Part shown: piece after piece, positions 1,311 through 52,451 of the stretch
Position numbering within the stretch: the first letter of the stretch is position 1
How the letters are laid out: each line of letters begins with the position of its first letter
Assembly: GCA_964649235.1 (NCBI GenBank)
Contig: CAZYOZ010000003.1
Coordinates: 3,670-60,788, forward strand
Reading direction: 5' to 3'
From: an uncultured Candidatus Bathyarchaeia archaeon
GTDB lineage: Archaea; Thermoproteota; Bathyarchaeia; 40CM-2-53-6
Length of the DNA: 57,119 nt
Translations under genes and position numbers: made by a program
Notes under the pieces: generated by a model
What the model was told of the DNA's origin: nothing
Database searches by the model: none
What the model saw: the letters and a program-made list of their open reading frames with translations, nothing else

Positions 1311-2678
1311 TTGGGAAGTGCAAGCCGGCACGCCGCTAGCGGCCACAGAGTGCTTTGGGGTCGCACCTTGCTAGCCGCGCTACTCGTCGCTTCGGCACTA
1401 GCCGACACCCTGCATCCTGTCGCGGCACAGGTCTGCTCAGTCAGCATAGACTACCTCGATTACTCTCCGAACGTTGCCCAAGAGCAGACTCTCGAGATCC
1501 GCGGCACCTTTCATCTGAGCTGCACACAATCGGGCAAACACATCGTTACCCGCGCGGAACTCCTCGAGAAACGCTCCCAGGCGGTTCTATGGACGAATTC
1601 AATCGATCTCGGTTTCGCCGCTAACTCACTGAATGACTGGACTCTGACAGTTAATATTCCACTTACGGCCCCGTCCGCGTCAGGCACGTGGGAACTCTCG
1701 CTGCGCGTCTACATCTTTTCAGGGGATCAATTAGCGACATCTGACGAGAAACATTTCCGGATACAAATCGGAGAGAGTGTTCAGGAAGGCCTGGTTAACG
1801 TCTTGGAACTTCAGAACGGAGATTTTGAGGATGGCCTCTCAGGCTGGGTAGTCATCGACAGCGGAAAAGGCAGCTCCACCTTATCCAGTTCAATCTCGCA
1901 TTCAGGCTCGTCATCTCTTCAACTGGATCTTCGTCCCACCACATCGGTGACCCAAGCCGAGATTCAGGGTGTCTCCCAGCATTCTTCGATTGAGAATCTG
2001 CGCAGCCTCGAAGCCCAGGCTTGGTTCCTCACATCCTCTTGCGCCTTCCCCGACGGAACCACAGGCCGAATAAGTGTACAAGTGGACCAACTCGGTATCG
2101 AATACAACGTTAACGCAACCTGTGGGGCATGGCAGCAAATCGACCTAAATGTGACCATGGATTTCGAAGCAAGATACGGGTTGGGTGGGCTTGAGCCCTT
2201 CCAGCGCGAAGGTTCAGTTTCCCTGACATTTGCACTGCAGCTTGTCCGGTCTGGGGCGAATGCTATGGCGCTGGCCGAATATGTTTCCATGAACTGGGAC
2301 GATGTTCAGCTGATTGCATCCGTCCCCACAACAATGAGCACCGAACTGACCACCACGTCAACTACTAGTATGGTCAGCACAACAAGCATGAATAGCGAGG
2401 CTTCCACCTCAACAGTTCAGGCTACCACCTCGACAACTATGCCACTAGAGGCCAGCACATCGCAAATGCAGATGCCTTGGCCCTTGCTCGCCATCCTCTC
2501 TCTCGCTTTGTTTCTCGTCGCCTTTTTCATGATTGCACCTAGGGTTCTTCGAAGAAAACAGCGTGCTGTTAATGTCTCTCGCTCGGGGCCCTTTTGTCCC
2601 GAATGCGGCGCGAGCCTTTCTAAGCGAATTGACGCAAAATTCTGTCAGGAGTGCGGCGCGGAGATCAGTCAGCGTTAG
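1311..2678 (+). CDS. Secreted, membrane-anchored protein: signal peptide, beta-rich/CBM-like domain, Ser/Thr linker, TM helix, cytoplasmic zinc ribbon
   Basis: Hydrophobic N-terminus, LQNGDFEDGLSGW (CBM4/9-like start), T/S-rich stretch, WPLLAILSLALFLVAFFMI TM, CPECG..CQECG; start uncertain. Confidence 0.75.
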   Translation: MGSASRHAASGHRVLWGRTLLAALLVASALADTLHPVAAQVCSVSIDYLDYSPNVAQEQTLEIRGTFHLSCTQSGKHIVTRAELLEKRSQAVLWTNSIDLGFAANSLNDWTLTVNIPLTAPSASGTWELSLRVYIFSGDQLATSDEKHFRIQIGESVQEGLVNVLELQNGDFEDGLSGWVVIDSGKGSSTLSSSISHSGSSSLQLDLRPTTSVTQAEIQGVSQHSSIENLRSLEAQAWFLTSSCAFPDGTTGRISVQVDQLGIEYNVNATCGAWQQIDLNVTMDFEARYGLGGLEPFQREGSVSLTFALQLVRSGANAMALAEYVSMNWDDVQLIASVPTTMSTELTTTSTTSMVSTTSMNSEASTSTVQATTSTTMPLEASTSQMQMPWPLLAILSLALFLVAFFMIAPRVLRRKQRAVNVSRSGPFCPECGASLSKRIDAKFCQECGAEISQR

Positions 2679-2914
2679 GCTGCAAGCGTCTGCTCTTCCG
2701 CCGAGGTTGTGATAGTCTTCCCGCATTTAGGGCATGTGAGGTCAGCGACATGCCAGCGCGTTTCAACCCATTTATGGCTGCAGTAAGGGCAGGTTATGTA
2801 CTGAAACCAACTTGTCACCGGGTTCAACAGTGAATCCATTCGAGTGATGAATGTACTCTCCACAAGAAAAACTTCACGCACCATTAGTACGTACGTGTAT
2901 CCATCCTTAGCCAC
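2675..2914 (-). CDS. Small zinc-finger protein (CPYC..CPKC)
   Basis: Two CxxC pairs; start uncertain. Confidence 0.5.
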   Translation of the reverse strand: MAKDGYTYVLMVREVFLVESTFITRMDSLLNPVTSWFQYITCPYCSHKWVETRWHVADLTCPKCGKTITTSAEEQTLAA

Positions 2915-3032
2915 GCCAAGTCATGGTGTGTTGGTCTTGGGGTCTCTATCTATCATGCACCATCGGGATCAAGAGAGACCTTCTCGATAAGAAAACTCAC
3001 AGAGCAGACAACACCCCCGCAAAAAAGGCCTT

Positions 3033-3043
3033 GAAATATATAA
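3033..3043 (+). promoter_or_regulatory. Putative archaeal TATA box upstream of the TPR-NYN gene
   Basis: GAAATATATAA in an intergenic region about 80 nt before the TTG at 3121. Confidence 0.35.
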
Positions 3044-3120
3044 CGCAAGAACGCGATTCTGAATGAAATCATGATATTCACGCTTCAGCAGGTAGGTGTT
3101 TGTGTTAAGGTTCGGTCTTC

Positions 3121-4383
3121 TTGAAAGAACACCTAGATGTAGCAACAAACTCTGAAGGACAAAACAACGAAGACCGGACGCTGGCGAAGTACGAGGAACT
3201 CGCCTCCTATGAAGAAGCCATCAAACTCAGGCCCGATTATGTTGAGGCGTGGTACGGAAGAGGCGTCACTCTGCTTGATCTCAAACGGCCAGAAGAAGCA
3301 TTACTCTCATTCGAAGAAGCCACCAGACTAAGACCCGATTACGCCGAGGCTTGGCTTGGCAAAGCAATCGCGCTAAGGAAAATTCAAGAACTGAAGTCCC
3401 AGCTTGGAAAGCAGGGCGTACTGGGGAGCGGCTCCCTGTTGCCTTCAACAACCGCAGGGCCATCCGGAAGCACGGAACCTCGTACCGCCACCCTACCGAA
3501 CCTTGACACTTATTCCGTCAGCCAAGTGCACCGTCAAGCAACACATGAGAGGCACCCGGAGAATCACAGGCAGTTTCCGACAAAGGAGATGCTGGATCAA
3601 AATCCATTCAACCTCCTAGGCCAAGGCGAATCCCTAGCAGTCGACGGCTCGAACCTGATCAGGCTGAAGTGCGAACCTCACAACGGAAAACGGTGCAATA
3701 ATCCAGGCCACATCTGGATCCTACTCGATTTCTTAAGAAAGAAGGAAGCCTGGGAGCGGGATATGTCGATGGGTGGGCAATGCTTCATCGTGATAGATGC
3801 CAGCCTAAGGCACCATGTGGACGACCAAGCAGGGCTGGAGGACTTGATAGCAAAACAGGCTGTCATTCAGATGCCCCCCGGCCACCCGTCGGACACTCTC
3901 ATCCTGAAGTTAGCTGACGAACTGCAAGCTGTCGTCCTAACAAACGATGTGAAGATGCAAGCAGAATACGCAGGCCAATATCCGTGGCTGAGAAGGGAAG
4001 AGCGATTCATGCGGTACGTCATCGTGTCCGACAGCAGCAAGAAAATCGAATACGTTAGAAGAGCCGCCACGCTGCCGAAGCGGCTAGACAACCATACGCT
4101 GCAGGCACGCAACATCCCTGCCTCAAACACCGTACTCAATCGCCACGGGCAACCGCAGGAATCAAAACATGAACATCGGCATCAGCCTGAGCAGGCAACT
4201 CCCGAAAGTCAACCACCAAGAAGGCTGGGATGGTTGTCCCGCATTCGTGGCTTCAAGGATAAACAGGGAAGCCCGGCGCCGGAGCACATAATCCCATGCC
4301 CGAACTGCGGTGCACCCATCGACGTATCCAACCCGCGGGTTAGGTTCTGCTTCCGCTGCCGGACACAGCTGCGTCCAAAATGA
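3121..4383 (+). CDS. TPR repeats + Zc3h12a/Regnase-like NYN (PIN-fold) ribonuclease + C-terminal zinc ribbon
   Basis: Two 34-aa TPRs (EEAIKLRPDYVEAW..G / EEATRLRPDYAEAW.GK); AVDGSN, IDASLRH, SD.LILKLA, VLTND..Y.W acidic motifs; CPNCG..CFRC. Confidence 0.8.
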   Translation: MKEHLDVATNSEGQNNEDRTLAKYEELASYEEAIKLRPDYVEAWYGRGVTLLDLKRPEEALLSFEEATRLRPDYAEAWLGKAIALRKIQELKSQLGKQGVLGSGSLLPSTTAGPSGSTEPRTATLPNLDTYSVSQVHRQATHERHPENHRQFPTKEMLDQNPFNLLGQGESLAVDGSNLIRLKCEPHNGKRCNNPGHIWILLDFLRKKEAWERDMSMGGQCFIVIDASLRHHVDDQAGLEDLIAKQAVIQMPPGHPSDTLILKLADELQAVVLTNDVKMQAEYAGQYPWLRREERFMRYVIVSDSSKKIEYVRRAATLPKRLDNHTLQARNIPASNTVLNRHGQPQESKHEHRHQPEQATPESQPPRRLGWLSRIRGFKDKQGSPAPEHIIPCPNCGAPIDVSNPRVRFCFRCRTQLRPK

Positions 4384-41753: not shown

Positions 41754-42628
41754 CTTGCGTCATCGGCGGAGCAGGCCGGATGGGAGTATGGTTCGCCAAC
41801 TTCCTAAAACGCAACAGATACAAAGTCATCATTTTTGACAAGAACAATGCTGCAGCTCGGAGAGCAGCCAAAAAGCACGGCTTGAGAATGGCCGCCAATC
41901 GAGCTCAAGCCGTGGAATCTTCCCAACTCGTCCTTCTGGCAACACCGACAAAGGTTACGAGTGAAATACTGCGACAAATTGGGCCACTGATCTCACCTGA
42001 TAAACTGGTCGTCGAAATCTCTTCAGTTAAACAGACTGTCAAAGCAAGAGTCTGCTACATGCTGAGGAAAGGTTTTGCGGTGCTCAGCATCCATCCGATG
42101 TTCGGCCCCGGCGCGAGCCGGCTCACTGGAAAGACCGTTCTAACCATGTCCGAAACCCAGAGAAGCCCACAGGCCAGACGATTCATATCACTGCTCAAAG
42201 AAGCTGGAGCGACAGTGATCAGCTGCCACTTCAATGAACATGATAAACTGGCGTCGTGGCTCTTGACCTTGCCACATTTCATCAGCATAGCATTTGTCAA
42301 CGCACTTAGGTCAACTGGGGCAGAACCGAATGCATTGCATGAAGCAGCAGGCACAACTTTTAGGCTTCAATTTCTCACAGCTGAAGCCGTATGCCAAGAG
42401 GACCTTGGGAATGAGCTATCACTGCTCGCAGACAATGAACGCGCCCTGGAGATCCTAGGACATTTTGAACAGCACGCCAGAGCAATAATGAAGACCATCA
42501 GAAACGGGAGACGCGAGGCACTAATTCGCACGCTACACAACGCACGCAGATATGTTCAGAGAGATAGACTCTTCGCAAGCTCATACGGCCGGTTCAATGC
42601 GGCTGCCGAAGCTTCGAGTCGTGTTTAG
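41744..42628 (+). CDS. tyrA: Prephenate/arogenate dehydrogenase
   Basis: IGGAGRMG.W, EISSVK, SIHPMFGP, EHDK...LTLPH. Confidence 0.9.
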   Translation: MAVACVIGGAGRMGVWFANFLKRNRYKVIIFDKNNAAARRAAKKHGLRMAANRAQAVESSQLVLLATPTKVTSEILRQIGPLISPDKLVVEISSVKQTVKARVCYMLRKGFAVLSIHPMFGPGASRLTGKTVLTMSETQRSPQARRFISLLKEAGATVISCHFNEHDKLASWLLTLPHFISIAFVNALRSTGAEPNALHEAAGTTFRLQFLTAEAVCQEDLGNELSLLADNERALEILGHFEQHARAIMKTIRNGRREALIRTLHNARRYVQRDRLFASSYGRFNAAAEASSRV

Positions 42629-43740
42629 TTCCCGAGGCTTTTCTCACCCAGCACGCGATGAATGAAACCAGCCCTCAGGCAGTGGTCGGCTAAGACAATG
42701 GCGACAGTGGACTCGACTACGGGCACTGCCTTCGGGACTATACATGGGTCATGGCGCCCTGTAGCTTGTACTGAAGTCTCTTCCATCTCCCGCAGGTTCA
42801 CTGTCCGCTGCTCCTTCGGAATCGACGAAGGCGGCTTGAATCCGACATGAACAATAATCGGCATGCCGGTCGACAGCCCGCCTAGAATTCCGCCTGCATT
42901 ATTGGTCAGAGTCACGATCCTGCTTTCGCGCACGGTGAAGGGATCATTGTTCTCTGAGCCTCTCACAGCACTTGCTCCGAATCCTAACCCGACCTCGAAG
43001 CCTTTGACTGCGGGAATGCTGAAAGCTATCTTGGCCAAATCCGCGTCCAAGCTGTCAAAGAACGGGTCGCCTATGCCTGGTGGGATGCCCTCAGCGATGC
43101 ACTCTACGATTCCACCCACACTGTCGCCCTCACTTCGCGCTTTGAGTATTGCCTCACGCATTTTCTCCGCCGTCTTGGGATCCGCGCAACGAACCGAATT
43201 TGTGTAAGCGTTGTTCTTTATGACATCGTGCGCTAGTTGCAGGTCCAGCTTGACGGTGTGAATTTGGATCGTATGCGCGAAGATTTCGATTCCGAATCGC
43301 CGCAGTAGCTTCTTGGCAACGGCACCTGCCATGATGAGCGGGACTGTCATTCTCCCGCTGGACCTTCCTCCGCCCCTGAAATCGTTGAAATTGCCATATT
43401 TCACACGTGTCGGAAAATCTGCATGCCCCGGCCTGGCCACAAATTTGAATTTCTCATAGTCCTGCGACCGAACATCTTTGTTCCATGTGACCATGGCGAT
43501 GGGCGCGCCCGTCGTGTAGCCCTCGAAGACTCCTGAGAGAATCTGAACTTCGTCCTTCTCTCTGCGCGTCGACGTCATGGTCGGGTCTGGTGGCATTCTG
43601 CGTTCCAGTTCTGCCTGAATGTCTCCGGTGCCCAGTTGCAAGCCAGCGGGGCATCCGTCGACGACCGCCGCGACCGTTGGACCGTGGCTCTCGCCGAAAA
43701 CGTTCACGCAGAATTCTTTCCCGAAAGAACTATCACCCAA
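42625..43740 (-). CDS. aroC: Chorismate synthase
   Basis: FGESHG, RPGHAD, RGGGRSSGR, NNAGGILGG, GRHDPC. Confidence 0.97.
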   Translation of the reverse strand: MGDSSFGKEFCVNVFGESHGPTVAAVVDGCPAGLQLGTGDIQAELERRMPPDPTMTSTRREKDEVQILSGVFEGYTTGAPIAMVTWNKDVRSQDYEKFKFVARPGHADFPTRVKYGNFNDFRGGGRSSGRMTVPLIMAGAVAKKLLRRFGIEIFAHTIQIHTVKLDLQLAHDVIKNNAYTNSVRCADPKTAEKMREAILKARSEGDSVGGIVECIAEGIPPGIGDPFFDSLDADLAKIAFSIPAVKGFEVGLGFGASAVRGSENNDPFTVRESRIVTLTNNAGGILGGLSTGMPIIVHVGFKPPSSIPKEQRTVNLREMEETSVQATGRHDPCIVPKAVPVVESTVAIVLADHCLRAGFIHRVLGEKSLGN

Positions 43741-45001
43741 TTACCTCGACTCCAAGTGACCTTAGGTCGTCAAAAAAGTTCGGGTAGGATTTGCTGACAC
43801 ATTCAGCACCTTCAATGGTGACCTTGTCTGAAGTTCCCAATGCGGCGATGCTGAGCGCCATAGCCACTCTGTGATCGCCATGGGCACGAACAACTCCTCC
43901 ACTCAAGAAAGAAGGACCACGCGTTACAAACCCATCATCAGTCTCTTTAACGTCCGCACCGAGTCCCTTCAGTTCAGATGTAACCGTCGCGAGCCGATCG
44001 GATTCCTTGTACCTCAGCCTCAAAGCCCCAGTGACTCTGCTTTCGCCCTCCGCGCAGCAACCCAACACTGCAAGCACGGGCCCCAGATCCGGGCTGTCGC
44101 GTATGTCCACTACAGTGCTTTTCAGCTTGCCACCTTCTATGAGAAGACCATCGTCTTCGACTGTGATGTGCGCCCCCATCTGGCGCAGGATTCCAATTAC
44201 TGCCGAATCAGGCTCGGGGCTGTTTGGAGAAAGGCCATGCACAATGACCTTTGAGCTTGTGATTGCTGCTGCTGCGAGTAGGAAAGCAGCTGACGAGAAG
44301 TCTCCACCAATCCTATGACTGGACGTGCTGTACCTTTGCCCCTTTTTGATCTCGAACTCTGTCATGCTGCGATTTGCTCGAACAGTAGTTCCATGTTTTC
44401 GCATGGTCTCAATTGTCAGCGAGGCGTAGCTTCTGGATTCCAAGGGCGAAGTACTCTCAAGCCGTAGTCCATTCTCCATCAGAGGACCCGCAAAGAGGAG
44501 ACCCGATATGAACTGCGAACTCACATCTCCACGAATGCGAACAACGCCGCCTCTCGGCGCTCCTCCTTCGATTCTAACGGTCTCCTGATCTGCGGCGACA
44601 TTGACATCGAGCTGTTTCATGGCATCGGCCAGGGGCTCAAGCGGTCTTCGCGCCAAACCTGCACTAACCCTAAAGGTGGTTTTCGAGCCGGTTAGCGAAG
44701 CTATTGGAATCATGAATCGCAACGTGACCCCGGATTCCCGGCAGTTGATTTCGCCATCTGCGGGTTGCGGCCGACCTCTGCCGTCTACTGTCCATGCAGT
44801 TCTGTTCTTAGTTAGTTTCCCTCCGAGCGCGGACACGGCCGAAGCTGTGGCCTCCGTATCATCGCATGAGAGAGGGTTGATGATGATGGTCGTGCCCTCC
44901 GAAAGAAGGCCCGCGACGAGTGCGCGATGAGTCTGGGCTTTGGAAGACGGGGCAGTAATTTCGCCAGTCAATGAGCGGGTCGGTGTTATGGTCACTTTCA
45001 A
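43733..45001 (-). CDS. aroA: EPSP synthase
   Basis: PSSKAQTHR, ESGVTLRF, SSQFISGLL, DFSSA, LRYKESDR, DHRVAM, KSYPNF; TTG start overlaps aroK stop. Confidence 0.96.
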   Translation of the reverse strand: MKVTITPTRSLTGEITAPSSKAQTHRALVAGLLSEGTTIIINPLSCDDTEATASAVSALGGKLTKNRTAWTVDGRGRPQPADGEINCRESGVTLRFMIPIASLTGSKTTFRVSAGLARRPLEPLADAMKQLDVNVAADQETVRIEGGAPRGGVVRIRGDVSSQFISGLLFAGPLMENGLRLESTSPLESRSYASLTIETMRKHGTTVRANRSMTEFEIKKGQRYSTSSHRIGGDFSSAAFLLAAAAITSSKVIVHGLSPNSPEPDSAVIGILRQMGAHITVEDDGLLIEGGKLKSTVVDIRDSPDLGPVLAVLGCCAEGESRVTGALRLRYKESDRLATVTSELKGLGADVKETDDGFVTRGPSFLSGGVVRAHGDHRVAMALSIAALGTSDKVTIEGAECVSKSYPNFFDDLRSLGVEVIG

Positions 45002-45879
45002 CTTGCTAAGACCAGTCCTGCGTGTGCTTTCCTGTGGTTGACTGAGGTTTCGATGACTCTTCCGGAAAGCCTTCTCCACACGGAGGTGATGTCACGCACC
45101 TTTGGGTGTGGCACGATGGCAGCCGTAGAGGGACCTTTGCCTGAAATCCCGGCAGCAACTGCCCCGGCCTCGATGGCCTGAGTTGCTGGAGAAATGTCGT
45201 AACCTAGAGCCAGCGAGTAGAAAAGACCGTTGAGTGTGAGCGAATACCAGTAGTTACCCCTTAACGCTTCTCGGTGTGCAATTGCCACTACCGGCCTGAT
45301 GCCGCTGAGCTGGTCGGGATCGACATCCTTTGTGTATTTCTTCTGCTTGGGCACGTGAATGAGTACGCGGAGCGAACCTTTCGGACTGAACCTTCCGAGG
45401 ACCCGCCGGTTCCTGTTGTCGGTCACTACGAGGCCTCCGAAGTAACACGCGTATGCATCATCGAAAGCACCTGTCAGTGTGACACCCGCTTCCAGGCTGG
45501 CGTCAACTCCTAATCTCACGGCTTCAAGGTCGCTTACTTTCTTTCCCAATGCTCTCAAGGTGGCTAGGATGATCGCGTTGCTGGCCGAACTGCTGCTCTT
45601 GAGCCCTGCTGCGACTGGAATGTTCGAACTAGTTTCTACGTGAGCCCCAAGCCGGTGGACATTGAATCTCCGAAATACTCGACGAACGCTAGCTTCTATG
45701 AGTTCGTTTCCCCCTCTAGGTTCGGTCAGGTTTTGCCCGCTGATTCTTCCAGCTTGCTCCGTGATGGTTACCCGCGCTTTTGTGCAGAGGCCAACGCCCA
45801 ATGCTGCCCCCATGCCTGTGGCCATAGCGTTCACCACAGTCACGGCCCCGTAGCTCACGGCCTCAGCTACTCTCTGCAT
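44998..45879 (-). CDS. aroK: Archaeal shikimate kinase (GHMP family)
   Basis: GAVTVVNAMATG.GAA, GLKSSSSASNA, TGAFDD, SGKGP. Confidence 0.95.
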   Translation of the reverse strand: MQRVAEAVSYGAVTVVNAMATGMGAALGVGLCTKARVTITEQAGRISGQNLTEPRGGNELIEASVRRVFRRFNVHRLGAHVETSSNIPVAAGLKSSSSASNAIILATLRALGKKVSDLEAVRLGVDASLEAGVTLTGAFDDAYACYFGGLVVTDNRNRRVLGRFSPKGSLRVLIHVPKQKKYTKDVDPDQLSGIRPVVAIAHREALRGNYWYSLTLNGLFYSLALGYDISPATQAIEAGAVAAGISGKGPSTAAIVPHPKVRDITSVWRRLSGRVIETSVNHRKAHAGLVLAS

Positions 45880-46750
45880 GAGCCATCAGCGGCAACTTCC
45901 GTGCAATTGCCCTCCGCATCTCATGCAACGGGGCCTGCCGCCCAAACCAGAGTTCGAAGGAGCAGGCAGCTTGATGCACCAGCTGGTCTAGGCCGTTGAC
46001 CGTTCTGGCGCCCGCGAGCTTGGCCTCTCTAAGCAGCCGCGTTTCTTGAGGCCTGTAGACTAGTTCAAACACGCATTGACTGGCCCGAAGAGATTTCTCA
46101 GTGATGGGTGGGTCGGCCTTTCCGTCCATTCCCATCGAAGACGCATTCACGATGACGTCGGCCTCTTCGATGTACCGACTGAGAGACTTACGCGAGAGTT
46201 GGGCACTCGCAATGTCCTTAGGAAATTTCGCGCGTAGGCGTCGTTCGAGCTGCTTTGCCCTAGAGAACGTTCGGTTGATGATCCGCATAGACTTCACTTG
46301 AGGCGCGAAAGCGTAGGCAAGCGCCCGCGCTGAGCCTCCGGCCCCCAGCAACAGGACAGTCTTTCCGTCGATCCCCACTCCAGCCTCACCTAGAGCTTTA
46401 AGCGCACCTAGGCCGTCAGTGCTGTATCCATACAGTATCCCATTTCTGTTGGCCACTGTGTTGACAGAGCCCATCTCTGACGCCTTGCGATCGAGTTCGT
46501 CAAGAAACCTCATAACAGGTATTTTGTGTGGTAAGGTGACGTTGAACCCCCTGACGCCCAAAGCGCGAAGACCCTGGATTGCTGATTTCAGAGTCCCCGG
46601 TTTCACATGGAAAGGCACGTAGACTGCGTCGAGACCCTGTGCCTGGAAAGCAGCGTTTTGGATAGCAGGGCTCAGTGAATGGTCTACTGGGTCTCCTATG
46701 ACCCCATAGAGTGCAGTCTTCCCAGAGATGCTGGCGCTATTGTATTCCAA
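45863..46750 (-). CDS. aroE: Shikimate dehydrogenase
   Basis: GDPVDHSLSP, NVTLPHK, SVNTV, TDG.G, GAGGSARA, GL..LV.QA. Confidence 0.95.
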   Translation of the reverse strand: MEYNSASISGKTALYGVIGDPVDHSLSPAIQNAAFQAQGLDAVYVPFHVKPGTLKSAIQGLRALGVRGFNVTLPHKIPVMRFLDELDRKASEMGSVNTVANRNGILYGYSTDGLGALKALGEAGVGIDGKTVLLLGAGGSARALAYAFAPQVKSMRIINRTFSRAKQLERRLRAKFPKDIASAQLSRKSLSRYIEEADVIVNASSMGMDGKADPPITEKSLRASQCVFELVYRPQETRLLREAKLAGARTVNGLDQLVHQAACSFELWFGRQAPLHEMRRAIARKLPLMAHAESS

Positions 46751-47399
46751 GTATACGCCACGCAGTCCTGAGGTCATCTATGGTGATCTGACCTAGCGCG
46801 GTTTCGGATTGATCATCCAAGGCCGCGTATGTGAATTGGGCGCCAAAGAGAGGTGATAGAATTCTGGAAGGGACACCGAGCGAACCCATCGCAAAAGAAA
46901 CGAGCCTCGTCTCCCTAGATCTCTCAGAGACGAAACGCAATATCGTCAGGTTGTCCTCTGGATGTTTGGCGGTTGTGACTATTTTGCAGACATCCCCGCC
47001 TACTTGTCTCTCAAAATCGAGGATTTTGCTCATTTCGAGAAGGGACGGCGTTCGGTTAGAATCGTGAAAGGAAACCACCGTCTGAGCTCCATTCGACTTC
47101 AGCTGCTCGATCAACGAAATTGCAACTTCATTAGCGCTGTTTACGTCGACGAATTCGAAATCGGACGTAGCTGCTGTCAAGAGTAGCTTCTTGATCACTG
47201 ACGCCTCTCGTTCTGCCTTGTCGGTGGCTATCGCTGGAAATCGTTTCTCGTGGCCTACCTTCTCGATAATGCTGAAATCCTGTACATTGTCAAACCTGAA
47301 CTCGACGAGGTCTGGCTGCTTCTTTGAGACCTGCTCGATGAGCTCCCCCACATCATCGTCATCCTTGATCATGACGGAAAGGCAGACTCTGACGTTCAG
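46737..47399 (-). CDS. aroD: Type I 3-dehydroquinate dehydratase
   Basis: VEFRFD, VVSFHD..RTP, KIVTTA, AMG..G..SRIL.P.FG..TYA, GQ; N-terminal VRVCLSV strand requires CTG start at 47399 overlapping the upstream TGA. Confidence 0.92.
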   Translation of the reverse strand: MNVRVCLSVMIKDDDDVGELIEQVSKKQPDLVEFRFDNVQDFSIIEKVGHEKRFPAIATDKAEREASVIKKLLLTAATSDFEFVDVNSANEVAISLIEQLKSNGAQTVVSFHDSNRTPSLLEMSKILDFERQVGGDVCKIVTTAKHPEDNLTILRFVSERSRETRLVSFAMGSLGVPSRILSPLFGAQFTYAALDDQSETALGQITIDDLRTAWRILGIQ

Positions 47400-48454
47400 C
47401 GTTCAATCACCATTTCATCTGCCACTAGCGTTCCGAAATGCCTGCCGCCTTCCTCGACCCTGACTAGGACTTGGTCACCTGGCTTCAGTTCTGAAACTGA
47501 CTTGGACCCGCTACCCGACAGAAGCCGGACAGTCTCGGCGTTCTGCACTATGATTGAGAATAACCGCCCGTCTGCTTCTGCTTCGATAAGCATCATAGGC
47601 CTGCGTTCGATTTTTACCCTCCCAACATGCCCTGACCTGGCTGCTCCAGAATGATTTACGATCAAGACTTCGTCGCCCGCCTTCAGTTCTGAAAGGTACC
47701 TTGTCTTGGTGCCCGGGGTCAGAACATAAGAGGAAACAGGCCCGGCGTTGACCCGGAACGGCCTAGGTTCCACGTGTGGGTTTCTGTGAACCTCCGCCTC
47801 GATTAGGAATAGGCCTGATGATTGCGAACCCACAAGCATACCTTCTCCAGGCTGCATCAGTTCGCATGTGTCAACGCAGACTCTTGCGCCTGTTCCAATC
47901 GGCTTTGCGACGACGACGTTTGCCTTCCCGAGGGGTATCTTCCCTTCAAACTGTTTGAGAAATTGGTCCACTTGTTCGATCTCGTTGGAGTTTTTGGGAG
48001 AAATTACGATGCCGTCAACTCCTAGCTCAAGTGTTTGCAGGGCAGTTCTTGCTTCGGTCAGGCCTGTGACCTCGGCCAGAAGTGTGGTCTTGTTTCTTGT
48101 CTGGGCAATGAGGTTCTCGAGGGGAATCACTTTCCAGTTTGGACATTGAACAATGATGTATCGGATGCCCGCCTCTGCGAGTTGTAGTGCTCTCTGTTCA
48201 TCGGAAGCGTCCTTCACGATTAATTCCGCAGCGGTTTCTCCGGAGAATTGGGTTTCACTTAGGTTTCTATTGGATACCACTCTAATTTCGGCACGCTCAT
48301 CGGAAGAAACCGTCTTCAACTTCAGACTGGACGCTAGCTTGATGTCGTCAGGCGCAAGCAGAACAGCTGAGCAGCGACCATCAGCCGCCTTAAGTAGTTC
48401 CACCTTGTGGTTTGCAGGCGCGGCAGAGTCCAGTCTAAGCCAGAGTTGTTTCAT
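47396..48454 (-). CDS. aroB': 3-dehydroquinate synthase II (archaeal AroB')
   Basis: WKVIPLENLIA, LELGVDG, RVCVDTC, RPFRVNAG, GRVKIERRP, QNAETVRL, GRHFG. Confidence 0.95.
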   Translation of the reverse strand: MKQLWLRLDSAAPANHKVELLKAADGRCSAVLLAPDDIKLASSLKLKTVSSDERAEIRVVSNRNLSETQFSGETAAELIVKDASDEQRALQLAEAGIRYIIVQCPNWKVIPLENLIAQTRNKTTLLAEVTGLTEARTALQTLELGVDGIVISPKNSNEIEQVDQFLKQFEGKIPLGKANVVVAKPIGTGARVCVDTCELMQPGEGMLVGSQSSGLFLIEAEVHRNPHVEPRPFRVNAGPVSSYVLTPGTKTRYLSELKAGDEVLIVNHSGAARSGHVGRVKIERRPMMLIEAEADGRLFSIIVQNAETVRLLSGSGSKSVSELKPGDQVLVRVEEGGRHFGTLVADEMVIER

Positions 48455-48459
48455 TTCAG

Positions 48460-49248
48460 TCAGCCCAGAATCTTGGCAGCGTCTTGTGCGCTCTTTCCCT
48501 GGTGGACGATTGCGGCCAGCGCCTTAGTCATTGACTCCGGATCTTTGTGCTGGAACACGTTTCGGCCGAAAGATAGGCCAGCTGCTCCCGCCTTCACCGA
48601 GTTCTCTGCAAGCTCCAGAACATCCAAGTCAGTCTTCATCTTCGGTCCTCCGGCAACCACGACCGGGACGGGGCAACCTCGCACTACTTGGCGGAAGGTC
48701 TCGAGGTCTCCTGTGTAGTTGGTTTTGACGATGTCGGCTCCGAGCTCAGCTCCGATTCTGGCGGCGTGAGATACAACTTCGAGTTCATGTTCGCTCTTTA
48801 TGCTGGGACCGCGCGGGTACATCATGGCAAGGAGAGGCATTCCGTAGGAGTCACATTCTTCAGAAAGTGCGCCGAGGAATTGGAGCATTTGGTCCTCTTC
48901 TTGAGCTCCGATGTTGATGTGAGCTGAGACAGCGTCAGCACCGAGCTTGATTCCCTCTTCAACGGTGCAGACGCCGACTTTCAGGTTTGGCTTTGCCCCA
49001 AGCTTTGTGGATGCTGACACGTGAACGATTAGCCCGGCGTTCTGACAGTCGATGTGCCTGGCGATGCCCTTGTGGACCAGAACAGCATCTGCGCCGCCAC
49101 TCACAACGCGTTTGACGGTGCTCTGCATGTCCTCAAGGCCCTGAACCGGCCCTATTGAGACGCCGTGGTCCATTGCGATAATGAAAGTCTTCGAATCGCT
49201 CCTGATGATTCTTCTGAGTCGTCTAGTCTTCCCAGTTTCCAAAATCAA
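48460..49248 (-). CDS. aroA': 2-amino-3,7-dideoxy-D-threo-hept-6-ulosonate synthase (AroA', class I aldolase family)
   Basis: MDHGVSIGP..GL, AMMYPRG, ELGADIVKTNY, AGGPK, GRNVFQ; adjacent to aroB'. Confidence 0.9.
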   Translation of the reverse strand: MILETGKTRRLRRIIRSDSKTFIIAMDHGVSIGPVQGLEDMQSTVKRVVSGGADAVLVHKGIARHIDCQNAGLIVHVSASTKLGAKPNLKVGVCTVEEGIKLGADAVSAHINIGAQEEDQMLQFLGALSEECDSYGMPLLAMMYPRGPSIKSEHELEVVSHAARIGAELGADIVKTNYTGDLETFRQVVRGCPVPVVVAGGPKMKTDLDVLELAENSVKAGAAGLSFGRNVFQHKDPESMTKALAAIVHQGKSAQDAAKILG

Positions 49249-49254
49249 TCACCG

Positions 49255-50286
49255 TCACAAGTACCCTTCCGCTTTCATCGACTCCGCGATAAGGATAGCA
49301 CATCCGGCTGCCCCGCGTACTGTGTTATGCCCGAGAGCTAGGAACTTCACGCCGTCGAAGACAGGATCGCGTCGTACCCGGCCCACGACAACAGACATTC
49401 CTCCGCCCTCGTTCCGGTCAAAACGAGGTTGAGGCCGGTCCTGTTCTGCTCTGACGACTACGGGTCGTTCGGGGGCCGAAGGCAATTTGAGTTTCTGAGG
49501 TTCCGCAACGAAGTTGGCCATGCATCCGGCGACCTCTTCGGGCGTTGCTGGTTTCTCGGTCTGGACGAAGATTGCTTCCGAGTGACCGTCTATCACTGGG
49601 ACGCGGTGGCAGCTCGCGGATACCTTGAAACCTGCTGGGGTTCCGGCCGTACCAAGAATTTTCTTGGTTTCACGTTCGACCTTCTCCTCTTCGTCCTTGA
49701 TGAACGGAATGATGTTGTCGATGATATCGAGGGACGCGACGCCAGGGTATCCAGCTCCTGAAGCTGCCTGCATCGATGACATAATGACATTCTTGACCCC
49801 GAAGCCATCGCAGAGTGGTTTCAGTGATAATGTGAGAACGGCGGTTGTACAGTTTGGGTCGGTAACTAGGGCTCCGTCCCATTTCCGTTTTCTCCGTTGC
49901 ACATCAATCAATGACAGATGCTCGAAGTTCGCCTCGGGATTCATGAGCGGGACGTCTGCCTCCATCCTGTGTGCTGAGGCATTGCTGACAACAGCGTAGC
50001 CTGCGCTTGCGAATTCCTCTTCTATTCGAAGTGCCTGTTCGGCGGGCAACGCGGAGAAAACCACGTCAGCATCTAGCTCCTTTGGAGCTGATGGGCGGAC
50101 CGTCAATTGAGCGAGTTTGCTTTTCAAGGGAGTCTCCATGCGCCAGCTGACAGCCTTACCATACTCCATGCCGGCACTTCTCTCGGAGCCCGTGATGGCT
50201 GAGATCTCAAACCATGGATGGTCGTTCAGCATCTGGACGAAGCGCTGGCCGACCAGCCCCGTTGCACCTAGAATAGCTGCTTTCAT
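49255..50286 (-). CDS. asd: Aspartate-semialdehyde dehydrogenase
   Basis: LGATGLVGQ, SNASAHRM, PNCTT, QAASGAG, RVPVIDGH, HNTVRGAAG. Confidence 0.97.
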   Translation of the reverse strand: MKAAILGATGLVGQRFVQMLNDHPWFEISAITGSERSAGMEYGKAVSWRMETPLKSKLAQLTVRPSAPKELDADVVFSALPAEQALRIEEEFASAGYAVVSNASAHRMEADVPLMNPEANFEHLSLIDVQRRKRKWDGALVTDPNCTTAVLTLSLKPLCDGFGVKNVIMSSMQAASGAGYPGVASLDIIDNIIPFIKDEEEKVERETKKILGTAGTPAGFKVSASCHRVPVIDGHSEAIFVQTEKPATPEEVAGCMANFVAEPQKLKLPSAPERPVVVRAEQDRPQPRFDRNEGGGMSVVVGRVRRDPVFDGVKFLALGHNTVRGAAGCAILIAESMKAEGYL

Positions 50287-50287
50287 C

Positions 50288-51655
50288 TCACAGCCCTTCT
50301 CTCACGGCTTGTTTGATCAGGTCAGCGGCCTGTTCCTTCTCGTCCCATGAAACGAAGACGAGAATACTCGAAGCCAGGGTTAGCATGCCATAGATGTTGA
50401 TCTCACTCTCCCTCAGCCGGTCCGAGATTCTCCCGATAATCCCAGGGGTGTCCTCGAGCCCGACACCTTTCACCTTTAGGAAAGCCAAGTTGGGCTGCAC
50501 GGCCATAGCAAGCGCCTCACCAAAGTTCCTAATGGTGGCATGAATGGATGACAGAACTGAGTTCGAAGCACCTTGGGGCATGTAGAAGATAACGGAATCA
50601 AAATTCGCCGATAGCCCCTGTAGTATAGAATGATTCCTGATCTCTGTGACCAAGCCCGCCAAGATTGCGGGATTTTCGGAGATACCTTTGCCTGCTACGG
50701 TAACAGCCATCGACGGAGTGCTGCCTTCGAAGGTGACCTCCAGCTCGCTGGAAATTCCACCGGTTATGATTGTTCCGTCGGCTTCTAAATCGTCCTTCTG
50801 ATTGCTAATTACTCTGACAGGGATGTTAGCGTCTTTGTATCTCAAGGCCTTCCTATGAATGAACTTCGTCCCCGAATCCGCAAGCCCGATCAGAGTCCTC
50901 ACATCGATCCTGTCGAGTTTTCTCGCATTCGGAACATATCGAGGATCAGCTGTCAGGATTCCTTCAGCATCACTTACAAGAACAACCTCATCCGCGCCAA
51001 TGGCCTTGGCGATGATAAACGCCGTGGTGTCGCTTCCTCCTCGCCCGATTGTGGTGACCTTGCTGTCAGCGGATTTCCCAACAAACCCTGCAATTACGGG
51101 GACCGTCCCCCAATCCAAGAGCGGAACAACATGCTCCTGAACTTTCCGAACGCACAATTCCATGATCGGGTTCGCGTTCGAGAACTGCCCGTCTGTGATG
51201 ATCGGCCACTCTTTATCGGACGGGTCAAAGTATTTCACGTCAAGCCCTGCGGATTTCAAGGCGGCGGCAAAAACCCTGACGCTCGTTCTTTCCCCCATCG
51301 CCAGTACATCGTCAAGGTCCGTTTTGTCAAGACCTCTTCCGGCAGTGTTGTTCACCAGGCCGAGCAGTTGGTCTGTCATCTTTCCCATTGCGGATACGAC
51401 GACGACAAGCTTCGTGCCTCTCGCGTTCTCTTTCGCTATCAGCTGTGTTGCTTTAGCGATACGATCTTTGTCGGCGAGGCTGGATCCGCCGAACTTGACA
51501 ACTAACCTGCGGTGCCTATGCCCCGATGCAGTGCACGGTGCTGGCTTGGAAGTAGTCTGGATTGTTGTGGTCGCAGAAATGTCAGTTGATGGCTTCTGGG
51601 GTGTGGACGATCCACCAGTGATCACCGTAAACGTGACCACCGAAAACTTTACCAC
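50288..51655 (-). CDS. lysC: Aspartate kinase with Thr/Ser-rich N-terminal extension
   Basis: VVKFGGSS, VVSAMG, GER, GRGGSDTTA, C-terminal ACT domains; no in-frame ATG before the catalytic core, only GTGs at 51655/51640/51625. Confidence 0.93.
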   Translation of the reverse strand: MVKFSVVTFTVITGGSSTPQKPSTDISATTTIQTTSKPAPCTASGHRHRRLVVKFGGSSLADKDRIAKATQLIAKENARGTKLVVVVSAMGKMTDQLLGLVNNTAGRGLDKTDLDDVLAMGERTSVRVFAAALKSAGLDVKYFDPSDKEWPIITDGQFSNANPIMELCVRKVQEHVVPLLDWGTVPVIAGFVGKSADSKVTTIGRGGSDTTAFIIAKAIGADEVVLVSDAEGILTADPRYVPNARKLDRIDVRTLIGLADSGTKFIHRKALRYKDANIPVRVISNQKDDLEADGTIITGGISSELEVTFEGSTPSMAVTVAGKGISENPAILAGLVTEIRNHSILQGLSANFDSVIFYMPQGASNSVLSSIHATIRNFGEALAMAVQPNLAFLKVKGVGLEDTPGIIGRISDRLRESEINIYGMLTLASSILVFVSWDEKEQAADLIKQAVREGL

Positions 51656-51695
51656 CTGTCTGGCTCACGTGGCACCCCTCAGTAACCCACGGCAT
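51582..51695 (-). promoter_or_regulatory. Putative aromatic amino acid-sensing leader ORF (MPWVTEGCHVSQTGGKVFGGHVYGDHWWIVHTPEAIN*) overlapping the lysC start; alternative start GTG 51668
   Basis: Hand-translated 37-codon ORF ending TGA at 51584-51582; GAGGGGTG SD before GTG 51668; sits at the head of the aro operon. Confidence 0.6.
51612..51656 (-). repeat. Three imperfect 15-nt tandem repeats GGTGGTAAAGTTTTC / GGTGGTCACGTTTAC / GGTGATCACTGGTGG
   Basis: Read directly from the minus strand; encode GGKVF/GGHVY/GDHWW in the leader frame. Confidence 0.8.
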
Positions 51696-51709
51696 CGTAC
51701 TGATGTTGG

Positions 51710-51717
51710 TTAAAAAG
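51710..51717 (-). promoter_or_regulatory. Putative TATA box of the lysC-asd-aro operon
   Basis: CTTTTTAA on the minus strand about 42 nt upstream of leader GTG 51668. Confidence 0.5.
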
Positions 51718-51758
51718 GTTCCCTGACAGGCCAACAGAAAGATGCATCGAATTTCGAC

Positions 51759-52451
51759 TTACATGCCAACGTATAGGCGTTCTGCCAGAAAGCTGGGAAG
51801 ACCTGCTGCAGTAATTTTGCGCGCGGCGGAATCGACATCGTAGCCGGTGCGATGAATTTCGAATGCCATTTTTGGCCCTGAAATGTTCAAGATAGCGAAG
51901 CTCGCACGCGCGTCCCCGTCCCTGGGTTGACCGACACTTCCTGGATTGCCTAACAACTGGCTTTGAAACCAGTAGGCCATGGGCATGTGAGTATGGCCTA
52001 GAAGCACGAGTGGAGCCTTGGCTTGCTTGATCAGCCACTTGGCAATTTGGTCAGGTATTCCCGGAAAAACGTATTCGGATAGTGGATCCCTTGGGCTTCC
52101 GTGGAACAGGGCTAGCGCGAAACCTCCGAGCTCCAACTTTGCCGAAGCTTTTAGCTTTGAAAGATATCGCAAGTTCTCCTCGGTGATCTTGCGCCTCGTC
52201 CACTCCACTGCTTCCGCTGCATGCTCAGAAAAGCCCGACGTGTCACCGGTAACGACTGCATAGTCGTGATTGCCCATCAGCACAGTGGTGGGACAAAGAT
52301 CAAGTAGCTGCTTCACGACTTCGTTTGGTTGCGGTCCGTAGCCTACCACGTCTCCTAGACAAAGGAGAGCGTCATGTGGAGGAAGTTTTTCGATCACAGC
52401 GCGAAAAGCGTCTAGGTTCGAGTGTATGTCTGAGATGACTGCTATTCTCAA
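51759..52451 (-). CDS. Metallophosphoesterase (YfcE/MJ0936 family)
   Basis: SDIHSN, LGDVVGYG, GNHD, HGSP, GHTH, NPGSVGQPRDG. Confidence 0.93.
   Translation of the reverse strand: MRIAVISDIHSNLDAFRAVIEKLPPHDALLCLGDVVGYGPQPNEVVKQLLDLCPTTVLMGNHDYAVVTGDTSGFSEHAAEAVEWTRRKITEENLRYLSKLKASAKLELGGFALALFHGSPRDPLSEYVFPGIPDQIAKWLIKQAKAPLVLLGHTHMPMAYWFQSQLLGNPGSVGQPRDGDARASFAILNISGPKMAFEIHRTGYDVDSAARKITAAGLPSFLAERLYVGM

Follow-up and report, generated by a model that had tools for sequence, protein, structure and literature searches.

A conserved aromatic leader with lysC in its +1 frame: a candidate frameshift sensor of charged tRNAs in Bathyarchaeia

Leader-peptide attenuation, T-boxes and most riboswitches are bacterial, and to our knowledge little is understood of how archaea use RNA or translation to adjust the making of amino acids to their supply. 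Here we describe a short leader open reading frame (ORF) at the head of the nine-gene lysC-asd-aro operon of an uncultured Candidatus Bathyarchaeia archaeon. It lies on the minus strand of a stretch of 57,119 nucleotides (nt), contig CAZYOZ010000003.1 of assembly GCA_964649235.1, positions 3,670 to 60,788, which is called the window below. A previous sequence-only reading of the window had taken this ORF for a leader peptide integrating the availability of Phe, Tyr and Trp. The idea of an aromatic-sensing leader is well supported by the comparison with related genomes. What is then the output of the sensor? The sequences suggest a programmed +1 frameshift rather than hairpin attenuation, a reading to which we give a probability of about one half.

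The bacterial leaders trpL, pheL and hisL resemble the locus in that a short ORF with its own Shine-Dalgarno (SD) sequence stands before a biosynthetic operon and carries codons for the end products, the sensed quantity being charged tRNA at the A site of the ribosome. At the present locus, by contrast, the sensor codons do not come in runs, the genus has no conserved terminator/antiterminator pair, and the gene that follows appears to lack a start of its own and overlaps the leader in the +1 frame. Another model is the frameshift site of prfB, AGGGGG-UAU-CUU-UGA-C. By the principle given in a 2016 review of recoding (PMC5009743), the likeness to prfB is that a short zero-frame ORF is followed by a product in the +1 frame, apparently without a start of its own here, and that a slippery NUU-U at the P-site codon precedes a slow A-site codon whose decoder is the regulated quantity. 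An upstream SD-like stretch that pairs with the 16S tail in prfB has a possible counterpart here. The differences are that in prfB a stop is read by a protein factor, whereas the sense codons UUC, UAC and UGG are read by charged tRNA here; that the spacing is 3 nt there and 6-7 nt here; and that the present locus has up to three tandem cassettes, an archaeal host, and a biosynthetic operon rather than the decoder itself as output.

Passages of that review (PMC5009743) count RF2 (prfB) and antizyme as frameshift sensors, regard frameshifting in pheL of E. coli as incidental, describe ketolide-induced frameshifting in the ermC leader, and give few archaeal cases of recoding, namely fucosidase-type -1 shifts, magnesium chelatase and viral tail genes. 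In ermC, ribosomes that have shifted in the leader keep translating through the spacer and so activate the gene behind it (PMC5009743); this matches those relatives of our locus in which leader and lysC are unfused and the +1 ORF ends at the lysC start. The inducer there is a drug acting on the ribosome, the effect is an unfolding of the mRNA, and direction and site are different; at our locus the charging of tRNA would act as the trigger, with termination-reinitiation or direct fusion as the coupling. The hungry codons of Gallant and the Ty1 site CUU-AGG-C share the +1 slip of a P-site tRNA from NUU to UUN while the A site awaits a scarce aminoacyl-tRNA (PMC5009743), but they belong to laboratory starvation or to retroelement expression at a set ratio, not to a conserved switch of amino acid biosynthesis. 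In antizyme, too, the efficiency of frameshifting is sensor and effector in a feedback on a metabolic pathway (PMC5009743); that system differs in being eukaryotic, in shifting at a stop codon, in being stimulated by a metabolite and in making a product that represses the pathway. A search of the literature, with subscription journals and supplements outside its scope, turned up neither aromatic leader peptides in archaea nor frameshift leaders that sense amino acids. The combination of leader sensing with RF2-type recoding would be what is new, pending experiment.

The leader ORF and the lysC frame

The leader ORF (51582..51668, minus strand) starts with GTG at 51668, has 28 codons and ends with TGA at 51584-51582; it encodes VSQTGGKVFGGHVYGDHWWIVHTPEAIN and is presumably translated. 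The sequence-only reading had found it correctly, though not in stating that the ORF track had missed it, since the track lists its longest form (51582..51734, TTG start). The same frame can be extended upstream to ATG 51695, which adds MPWVTEGCH before VSQTGGKVFGGHVYGDHWWIVHTPEAIN. The earlier reading had included this ATG, but it is not conserved in relatives and, judged from TATA spacing, probably lies upstream of the transcript start; the conserved start is GTG 51668 after its SD. This SD, GAGGGGTG (51673..51680, minus strand), which the earlier reading had also pointed out, is separated from the GTG by four bases (CCAC) and is complementary to the 16S rRNA 3' end of a same-genus genome, ...GGATCACCTCCTTA. 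Farther upstream, the TATA-like box seen before, CTTTTTAA at 51717-51710 (51710..51717, minus strand), falls into a conserved block in the alignment of 18 loci of the genus, where it reads TTCTTTTAAG. We consider it a putative promoter element, and the transcript start is predicted near 51684-51688 by what we take to be the usual archaeal TATA spacing. Directly 3' of the leader stop there is a T-rich tract, CATTTCTGCG (51572..51581, minus strand); most loci of the genus have TTTCT, TTTTTC or TTTTTG at this place.

The core of the leader consists of three 15-nt tandem repeats (51656-51612), GGTGGTAAAGTTTTC, GGTGGTCACGTTTAC and GGTGATCACTGGTGG, which end in TTC, TAC and TGG-TGG just as had been noticed from the letters. 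The first cassette (51642..51656, minus strand) reads GGTGGT-AAA-GTT-TTC, that is, an SD-like stretch, 3 nt, a putatively slippery GTT and a Phe sensor codon. The second (51627..51641, minus strand) reads GGTGGT-CAC-GTT-TAC and has a Tyr sensor codon, while the third (51612..51626, minus strand), GGTGAT-CAC-TGG-TGG, has Trp codons without a slippery NTT. The leader thus holds one TTC, one TAC and two TGG as single codons without runs, and its stop lies 14 codons past the Tyr codon. TRF reports the array at 51618-51656 with period 15, 2.6 copies, 83% matches and score 50; the genome of 1.53 Mb has 19 arrays of score 50, and period 15 occurs in 2 of these. The stretches GGTGGT and GGTGAT, 3 nt before NTT, are complementary to ...GGATCACCTCC, with one G-U pair for GGTGGT, and GGTGATC can pair without mismatch over 7 nt with the 16S 3' tail of the same-genus genome.

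Is such a leader more than chance would give? The aromatic content of the leader alone is unexceptional: a 12-residue stretch with at least four Phe, Tyr or Trp occurs in 1660 of the 34648 short ORFs (8-70 amino acids) of the same genome, or 4.8%. An Rfam search of 51300-51900 at a permissive threshold gave two matches, on the plus strand only, with scores of 16.1 against a gathering threshold of 50 and 9.3 against 290. With the aromatic content unremarkable and Rfam empty, the case rests on comparison. For this the lysC locus was taken from 40 relatives and then from the class, where 110 of 251 genomes matched at E <= 1e-70. What goes beyond chance is the rare tandem repeat at this spot combined with its conservation in relatives.

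The sequence-only reading had staked its idea on the leader frame and the aromatic codons being kept in relatives, and both are. The leader with its SD, its start codon and its Tyr codon is kept in all 18 same-genus loci. The start interchanges among ATG, GTG and TTG, a single aligned stop column uses TGA, TAG or TAA, and the SDs before the start are GAGGGG or GAGGGT. All 18 loci have the TATA-like TTCTTTTAAG and the nearly invariant core TTTTCGGTGGTCACATTTAYGGTGAYCACTACTGG, as well as NTT-TAY. TTC is retained in 16/18 loci, with NTT before it in 11 of the 16. It is retained even where the preceding codon changes and shifts the lysC-frame residue from F to T or I (L006, L008, L009, L010 and L018), and exchange of TAT and TAC is synonymous in the leader and changes M/T in the lysC frame. 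TGG is present in 15/18; among the other loci L007 has TGA at that site, and L014 and L016 have neither. The third repeat of L007, GGC-TAC-TGA-C, lets the leader end exactly at the TGG position of the others. TGG-TGG is unique to the genome of the window, the relatives having TAC-TGG, CAC-TGG, TGC-TGG or AAC-TGG. The proposed integration of three amino acids is weakest for Trp, whose TGG lacks NTT and is absent in 3/18.

Then where does lysC begin? Its frame, in the +1 register to the leader, is extended upstream of the gene body (51512..51664, minus strand) and opens after TGA 51667-51665, which overlaps the leader GTG. The open lysC frame has 455 amino acids, and the AA_kinase domain starts at residue 50. 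There are in-frame GTGs at 51655, 51640 and 51625, all of them inside the repeats; past the repeats, the lysC frame of the window has no ATG, GTG or TTG before the conserved N-terminus is reached. Apart from the GTGs inside the repeats, lysC thus appears to have no start site of its own in this genus. The +1 register is found in 16/18 loci of the genus, L014 and L018 having indels. Between the final sensor codon and the conserved N-terminus of LysC, 34/34 scored fused loci (genus g1, genus g2 and family f2; L014 and L018 are unscorable because of an indel or breaks) are free of stops in the +1 frame, compared with 69 stops in each of the other two frames. A shuffled sequence is open over this stretch with a probability of 0.08-0.25 per locus. 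The linker after the repeats is rich in S, T, P and Q, poorly conserved and fast evolving, and its length changes in multiples of three.

In some cassette loci lysC does have its own start, and L019, L023, L029 and 14 of L174-L188 were read in this respect. There the +1 frame is open for 29-57 codons, and its stop falls between -38 and +14 nt relative to the lysC anchor, often in an ATGA or GTGA overlap with the separate lysC start. The +2 frame is closed after 2-29 codons, its stops being scattered. In L174, L175, L179, L186 and L188, no ATG, GTG or TTG occurs in the +1 ORF as far as the last sensor codon. In the fused loci scored and the unfused loci read, the +1 relation between cassette and lysC is exclusive.

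Leaders across Bathyarchaeia and before trpE

More distant Bathyarchaeia also have leaders rich in Phe and Tyr before the same operon, and their leaders follow two architectures. In the first, type A, at least 7 of 12 consecutive residues are Phe, Tyr or Trp. This is found on the sense strand in 44/108 upstream regions, compared with 0/108 on the antisense strand and 21/2160 shuffles; MFFDFFYYYFYFE, FFSFGYYFYYYFR and NPYYYYYYYCFF are examples. A conserved hairpin adjoins the stop of the leader, whose N-terminal half is enclosed by another helix; lysC has its own SD and ATG. In L031-L036 and L114-L147, UUCGAAGC pairs with GCUUCGA around the first half of the leader; in the hairpin directly after the stop, GCCCAGAAC pairs with GUUCUGGGC with a T run in the loop. 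These helices form a candidate structured RNA motif that is not in Rfam. A covariation test of the two hairpins (P1 and P2) gave no covariation support, the helices being nearly invariant. The operon order in one such locus, L031, is lysC-aldolase-DHQS II-aroD.

The second architecture, type B, is that of the window: aromatic codons are few, and each stands in a cassette of SD-like stretch, spacer, NTT and TTC or TAC. Deeper families have AGGAGG or GGGGG with a 6-nt spacer, for example in the leader MVVNRRLYVFRRTCVYTD. A regular expression for the cassette finds at least one in 57/64 loci that are not type A, a few of them probably false positives, and over the 108 upstream regions it gives 88 sense vs 4 antisense matches. 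Seven loci, two of them paralogs, show neither architecture. In two loci labelled Thaumarchaeota or uncultured archaeon (L037 and L039), MRGGSVYRWPLFGFKR and MELHRGGSLYPQLSYRKPIFGFRY stand before lysC-asd with GGCGGT-TCA-NTT-TAT cassettes; the +1 frame of L037 does not reach the lysC start.

The type A loci served as a control for the +1 relation. Their lysC start is reached by the +1 frame in 13/44 and by the +2 frame in 11/44, so that +1 bridging as a general property of type A was rejected. In L134, L146, L165, L154 and L024 the +1 frame of the poly-aromatic leader enters lysC and stays open for more than 1200 nt, and a few type A loci may also be fused forms.

Does the arrangement recur before another gene of aromatic biosynthesis? 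Neither trpE nor trpA was found in the assembly of the window's genome, which is 88% complete, and the trp parallel therefore rests on relatives, trpE being present in 4/5 genomes of the genus and 29/61 of the order. A strict cassette of the form start-RGG-KAT-NNN-NTT-TGG, with ATG as the start in its summary form, precedes trpE in 32/33 loci of the order, and the 33rd has a one-letter variant. The leader peptide has the form M-(G/R/S)-(Y/D/H)-x-(L/V/I)-W, with the stop 2-45 codons past the W. In 32/32 loci trpE is in the +1 frame to the cassette; NTT before TGG is likewise seen in all 32, a figure that follows from a regular expression which itself requires NTT-TGG. The trpE frame has no ATG, GTG or TTG from its upstream stop, often the TGA of an ATGA, to the conserved N-terminus in 19/32 loci, and in the remaining 13 the in-frame starts are at non-conserved places. 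The first in-frame start of L193, L194 and L199 is codon 117, 82 and 62, respectively, whereas the Anth_synt_I_N domain already begins at residue 28, 40 and 24. Ordinary initiation could not yield a full TrpE in these loci. CUU-UGG-G is the sense-codon counterpart of the RF2 site CUU-UGA-C.

At the level of the phylum, 27 of 40 further trpE upstream regions have NTT-TGG with an upstream in-frame start, and 10 of these 27 have no canonical start in the trpE frame. The scan looked for NTT-TGG only in the register that places trpE at +1, so some of the 27 matches may be due to chance. NTT-TGG in this register is absent in family f39 (0/7) and family f50 (0/4), both with ordinary starts. The trpE cassette form is spread over many families of the phylum, including ammonia-oxidising archaea, and 3/3 genomes tested of family f35 encode archaeal AmoA. 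The trpE frame of f35 has a GTG four bases after the leader ATG, and both frameshift and ordinary initiation are possible there. Upstream of the trpE leader start by about 60-110 nt, just upstream of the TATA box, paired TGTAC boxes are conserved in L191-L224, for example ATGTACATTTATGTAC, and TTTTTGTACGCTGTAGC in the genus. They look like a transcription-factor operator and recall the TRP boxes of TrpY; trpE may be under dual control.

A proposed +1 frameshift and its rivals

How could such a leader work? Ribosomes would initiate at GTG 51668 behind its good SD. Each cassette would place an SD-like GGUGGU or GGUGAU, the complement of the 16S tail, 3 nt before a slippery NUU that is followed by UUC or UAC. 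If Phe-tRNA or Tyr-tRNA is plentiful, the sensor codon would be read in frame and translation would end at TGA 51582 with no LysC made. If the cognate charged tRNA is scarce, the A site would stay empty and the P-site tRNA would move from NUU to UUU, which puts the ribosome into the +1 frame. This frame would carry it, free of stops, through the linker into lysC and on to the tightly packed aro genes; in unfused lineages the shifted ribosome would run to the lysC start instead. The net logic would be positive control by starvation, with the tandem cassettes as an OR gate. What is observed is the anatomy and its conservation, the +1-only relation, and the lack of a start for lysC in many relatives and for trpE; the occurrence of the shift and its tuning by amino acid supply are inferred. 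The frameshift reading would explain why synonymous positions are frozen, why only the +1 frame leads on, why starts are missing, and why the sensor codon fits the pathway, Phe, Tyr (and Trp) being encoded before the common aro pathway and Trp alone before trpE.

A wider claim can be made more tentatively, at somewhat short of even odds, namely that these sites belong to an undescribed class of regulatory recoding signals in which the charging of a specific tRNA would decide the slip at an SD-like stretch, N3, NUU and a sensor codon. Within such a class, Phe, Tyr (and Trp) cassettes would form an OR gate for lysC-aro, and a single Trp cassette (CUU-UGG) would gate trpE.

Several points weigh against a frameshift. 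The position equivalent to GGAGG lies 6-7 nt before NTT in all cassettes. In E. coli prfB the spacing is 3 nt, and 6-7 nt in bacteria is initiation-like and not known to push the ribosome to +1. The in-frame GTGs at 51655, 51640 and 51625 make internal initiation possible in the window and the genus. The TGG codons do not follow NTT (CAC-TGG and TGG-TGG in the window, TAC-TGG in the genus), so P-site re-pairing would be poor there. For GUU or AUU slipping to UUU the first position is mismatched, and only CUU mimics the RF2 site. The linker looks only weakly like coding sequence, with pairwise differences of 0.41, 0.36 and 0.51 at the first, second and third codon positions, compared with 0.10, 0.02 and 0.50 in lysC proper. 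Two loci of the genus break the pattern, L014 by a 1-nt insertion in the linker (GGAGGAG vs GGGGAG in L016) and L018 by a broken and shifted passage from leader to lysC and two TGA codons within the gene; either the assembly is wrong at these two loci or they are decaying. The gene pheA (PDT) has an ordinary start and no cassette in 5/5 genomes of the genus, and scans of the window's genome and of two others (G015 and G017) found no further cassettes. It should also be noted that the regular expressions for the cassette were written after the data had been seen, and that the loci of the relatives are not independent of one another.

The scan of the window's genome gave 16 regular-expression matches, among which the layout of leader and +1 frame occurs only at the lysC leader; three other candidates near gene starts have ordinary ATG starts. 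G015 and G017 gave 16 matches, with the layout only at trpE. Transcriptional slippage was set aside, since the T runs are only 3-4 long, too short by the usual rule.

What other explanation would fit the leader? The one that survives best, though we think it unlikely, is a classical stalling leader, in which a pause at the Phe, Tyr and Trp codons would alter RNA structure, termination (for example at the T-rich tract) or mRNA stability, and LysC would be initiated separately at an in-frame GTG inside the repeats. The sequence-only reading had implied such a mechanism of the trpL/pheL type, which the comparison does not support. The three GTGs and the T-rich tract are indeed available in the window, as is a predicted 10-bp hairpin (51616..51642, minus strand; arms 51642-51633 and 51625-51616) with the Tyr site GUUUACG in its loop, and other Bathyarchaeia have the classical layout, a poly-Phe/Tyr leader with its stop abutting the hairpin GCCCAGAAC...GTTCTGGGC, the second helix, and lysC with its own SD and ATG. 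In the genus of the window, however, a search for mutually exclusive terminator and antiterminator hairpins found one hairpin only, so that alternative pairings are not conserved, and lysC has no separate start of its own. This hairpin is formed by the near-palindromic repeat units and is the sole structure kept in the consensus fold of the genus; it shows no covariation (term +0.57). The z-score of the whole leader is -1.31 in the window, and in six loci the leader folds score -1.09, 0.07, -2.98, 0.41, -0.04 and -0.45, no stabler than shuffles in 5/6 loci. Moreover, a ribosome pausing at the Tyr or Trp codons would sit on the only lysC starts, and starvation would then lower LysC. By the usual spacing rule, the GTGs are also beyond the reach of a normal SD, since some 14 nt separate them from the position equivalent to GGAGG. 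Stalling also leaves unexplained why the +1 frame alone reaches lysC in every cassette locus, and why trpE is often without an in-frame start.

Another and less probable explanation, which we regard as doubtful, takes the leader ORF as a by-product of selection on something else, either the block as an extended LysC N-terminus (...VVKFSVVTFTVITGG...) or a nucleotide element, such as the binding site of a regulator or the palindromic GTGATCAC hairpin. Both frames do look constrained: the third positions of the Gly codons of the leader are invariant, the lysC-frame FSVVTF[MT]V is as conserved as the leader peptide, and the near-palindromic units fold into a hairpin. But the SD of the leader is conserved in its own right, changes at the leader start are confined to ATG, GTG and TTG and those at its stop to TGA, TAG and TAA, and in the lysC frame a stop overlaps the start of the leader. 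The identity of the aromatic codons is kept while the lysC-frame residues change, unrelated leaders before the same operon are aromatic too (the 44/108 type A regions against 0/108 and 21/2160 in the controls), and the trpE cassette carries Trp, not Phe or Tyr. That the leader is a chance feature without function, as the 4.8% of equally aromatic short ORFs and the empty Rfam search might suggest, is hardly credible, being already contradicted by the comparative data from the 18 genus loci and many families and by the rarity of such repeats (19 in 1.53 Mb).

Operon, genome context and meaning

The nine-gene operon proposed downstream of the leader is borne out by gene families, all genes being on the minus strand. 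The lysC body (51511 down to 50288; aspartate kinase, AA_kinase and ACT) starts at the conserved RRLVVKFGGSS. The eight genes after it (42625..50286) are asd for aspartate-semialdehyde dehydrogenase (49255-50286), a DeoC-type aldolase gene (48460-49248), DHQS-II for a type II dehydroquinate synthase (47396-48454), aroD (46737-47372), aroE (45863-46777), a GHMP shikimate kinase gene (44998-45879), aroA (43733-45079) and aroC (42625-43740). The junctions are overlapping or at most 23 nt wide. The operon represents the route by which archaea reach chorismate from aspartate semialdehyde. On the upstream side of the putative leader promoter lies a gene for a calcineurin-like metallophosphoesterase (51759-52451, minus strand), a neighbour (...LPSFLAERLY[VI]G*) common to several loci of the genus.

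The genome of the window (G000) also encodes a stand-alone C-terminal catalytic subunit of PylS (TIGR02367, 282 bits vs a cut-off of 178) adjoining a B12-binding corrinoid protein, at 2314-3219 and 1478-2131 of contig C35, both on the minus strand; in the numbering of locus L282 these positions are 915-1820 and 79-732. TAG may therefore be read as pyrrolysine in some genes of this genome. The leader stop is TGA in the window and TAG in several relatives. The most aromatic short ORFs of the genome are two intergenic ones, C35:6516-6638 and C32:21331-21480, both on the minus strand and made almost only of Y, W, P, G and A (...YPYYPWYGYYAWPWYGYYAYPW). They were considered as further aromatic leaders and rejected, there being no aromatic biosynthesis gene downstream.

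What would the leader mean for these archaea? Leaders with aromatic codons stand before lysC-aro operons across Bathyarchaeia, so that ribosome-based amino acid sensing in archaea becomes a testable claim. The lysC of the aromatic operon, and in many lineages TrpE, appear reachable only via a one-base slip at an end-product codon. Because the trpE cassette occurs in AmoA-encoding genomes, the idea may be testable in cultured ammonia oxidisers. If it is true, the annotation of lysC and trpE starts would change in thousands of archaeal genomes, where many of the called starts would be wrong or flagged as missing. It would also be the first case in nature of hungry-codon frameshifting serving to sense metabolism, it would carry the logic of RF2 and antizyme over to charged tRNAs, and it would give archaea an ancient counterpart of the attenuators and T-boxes of bacteria.

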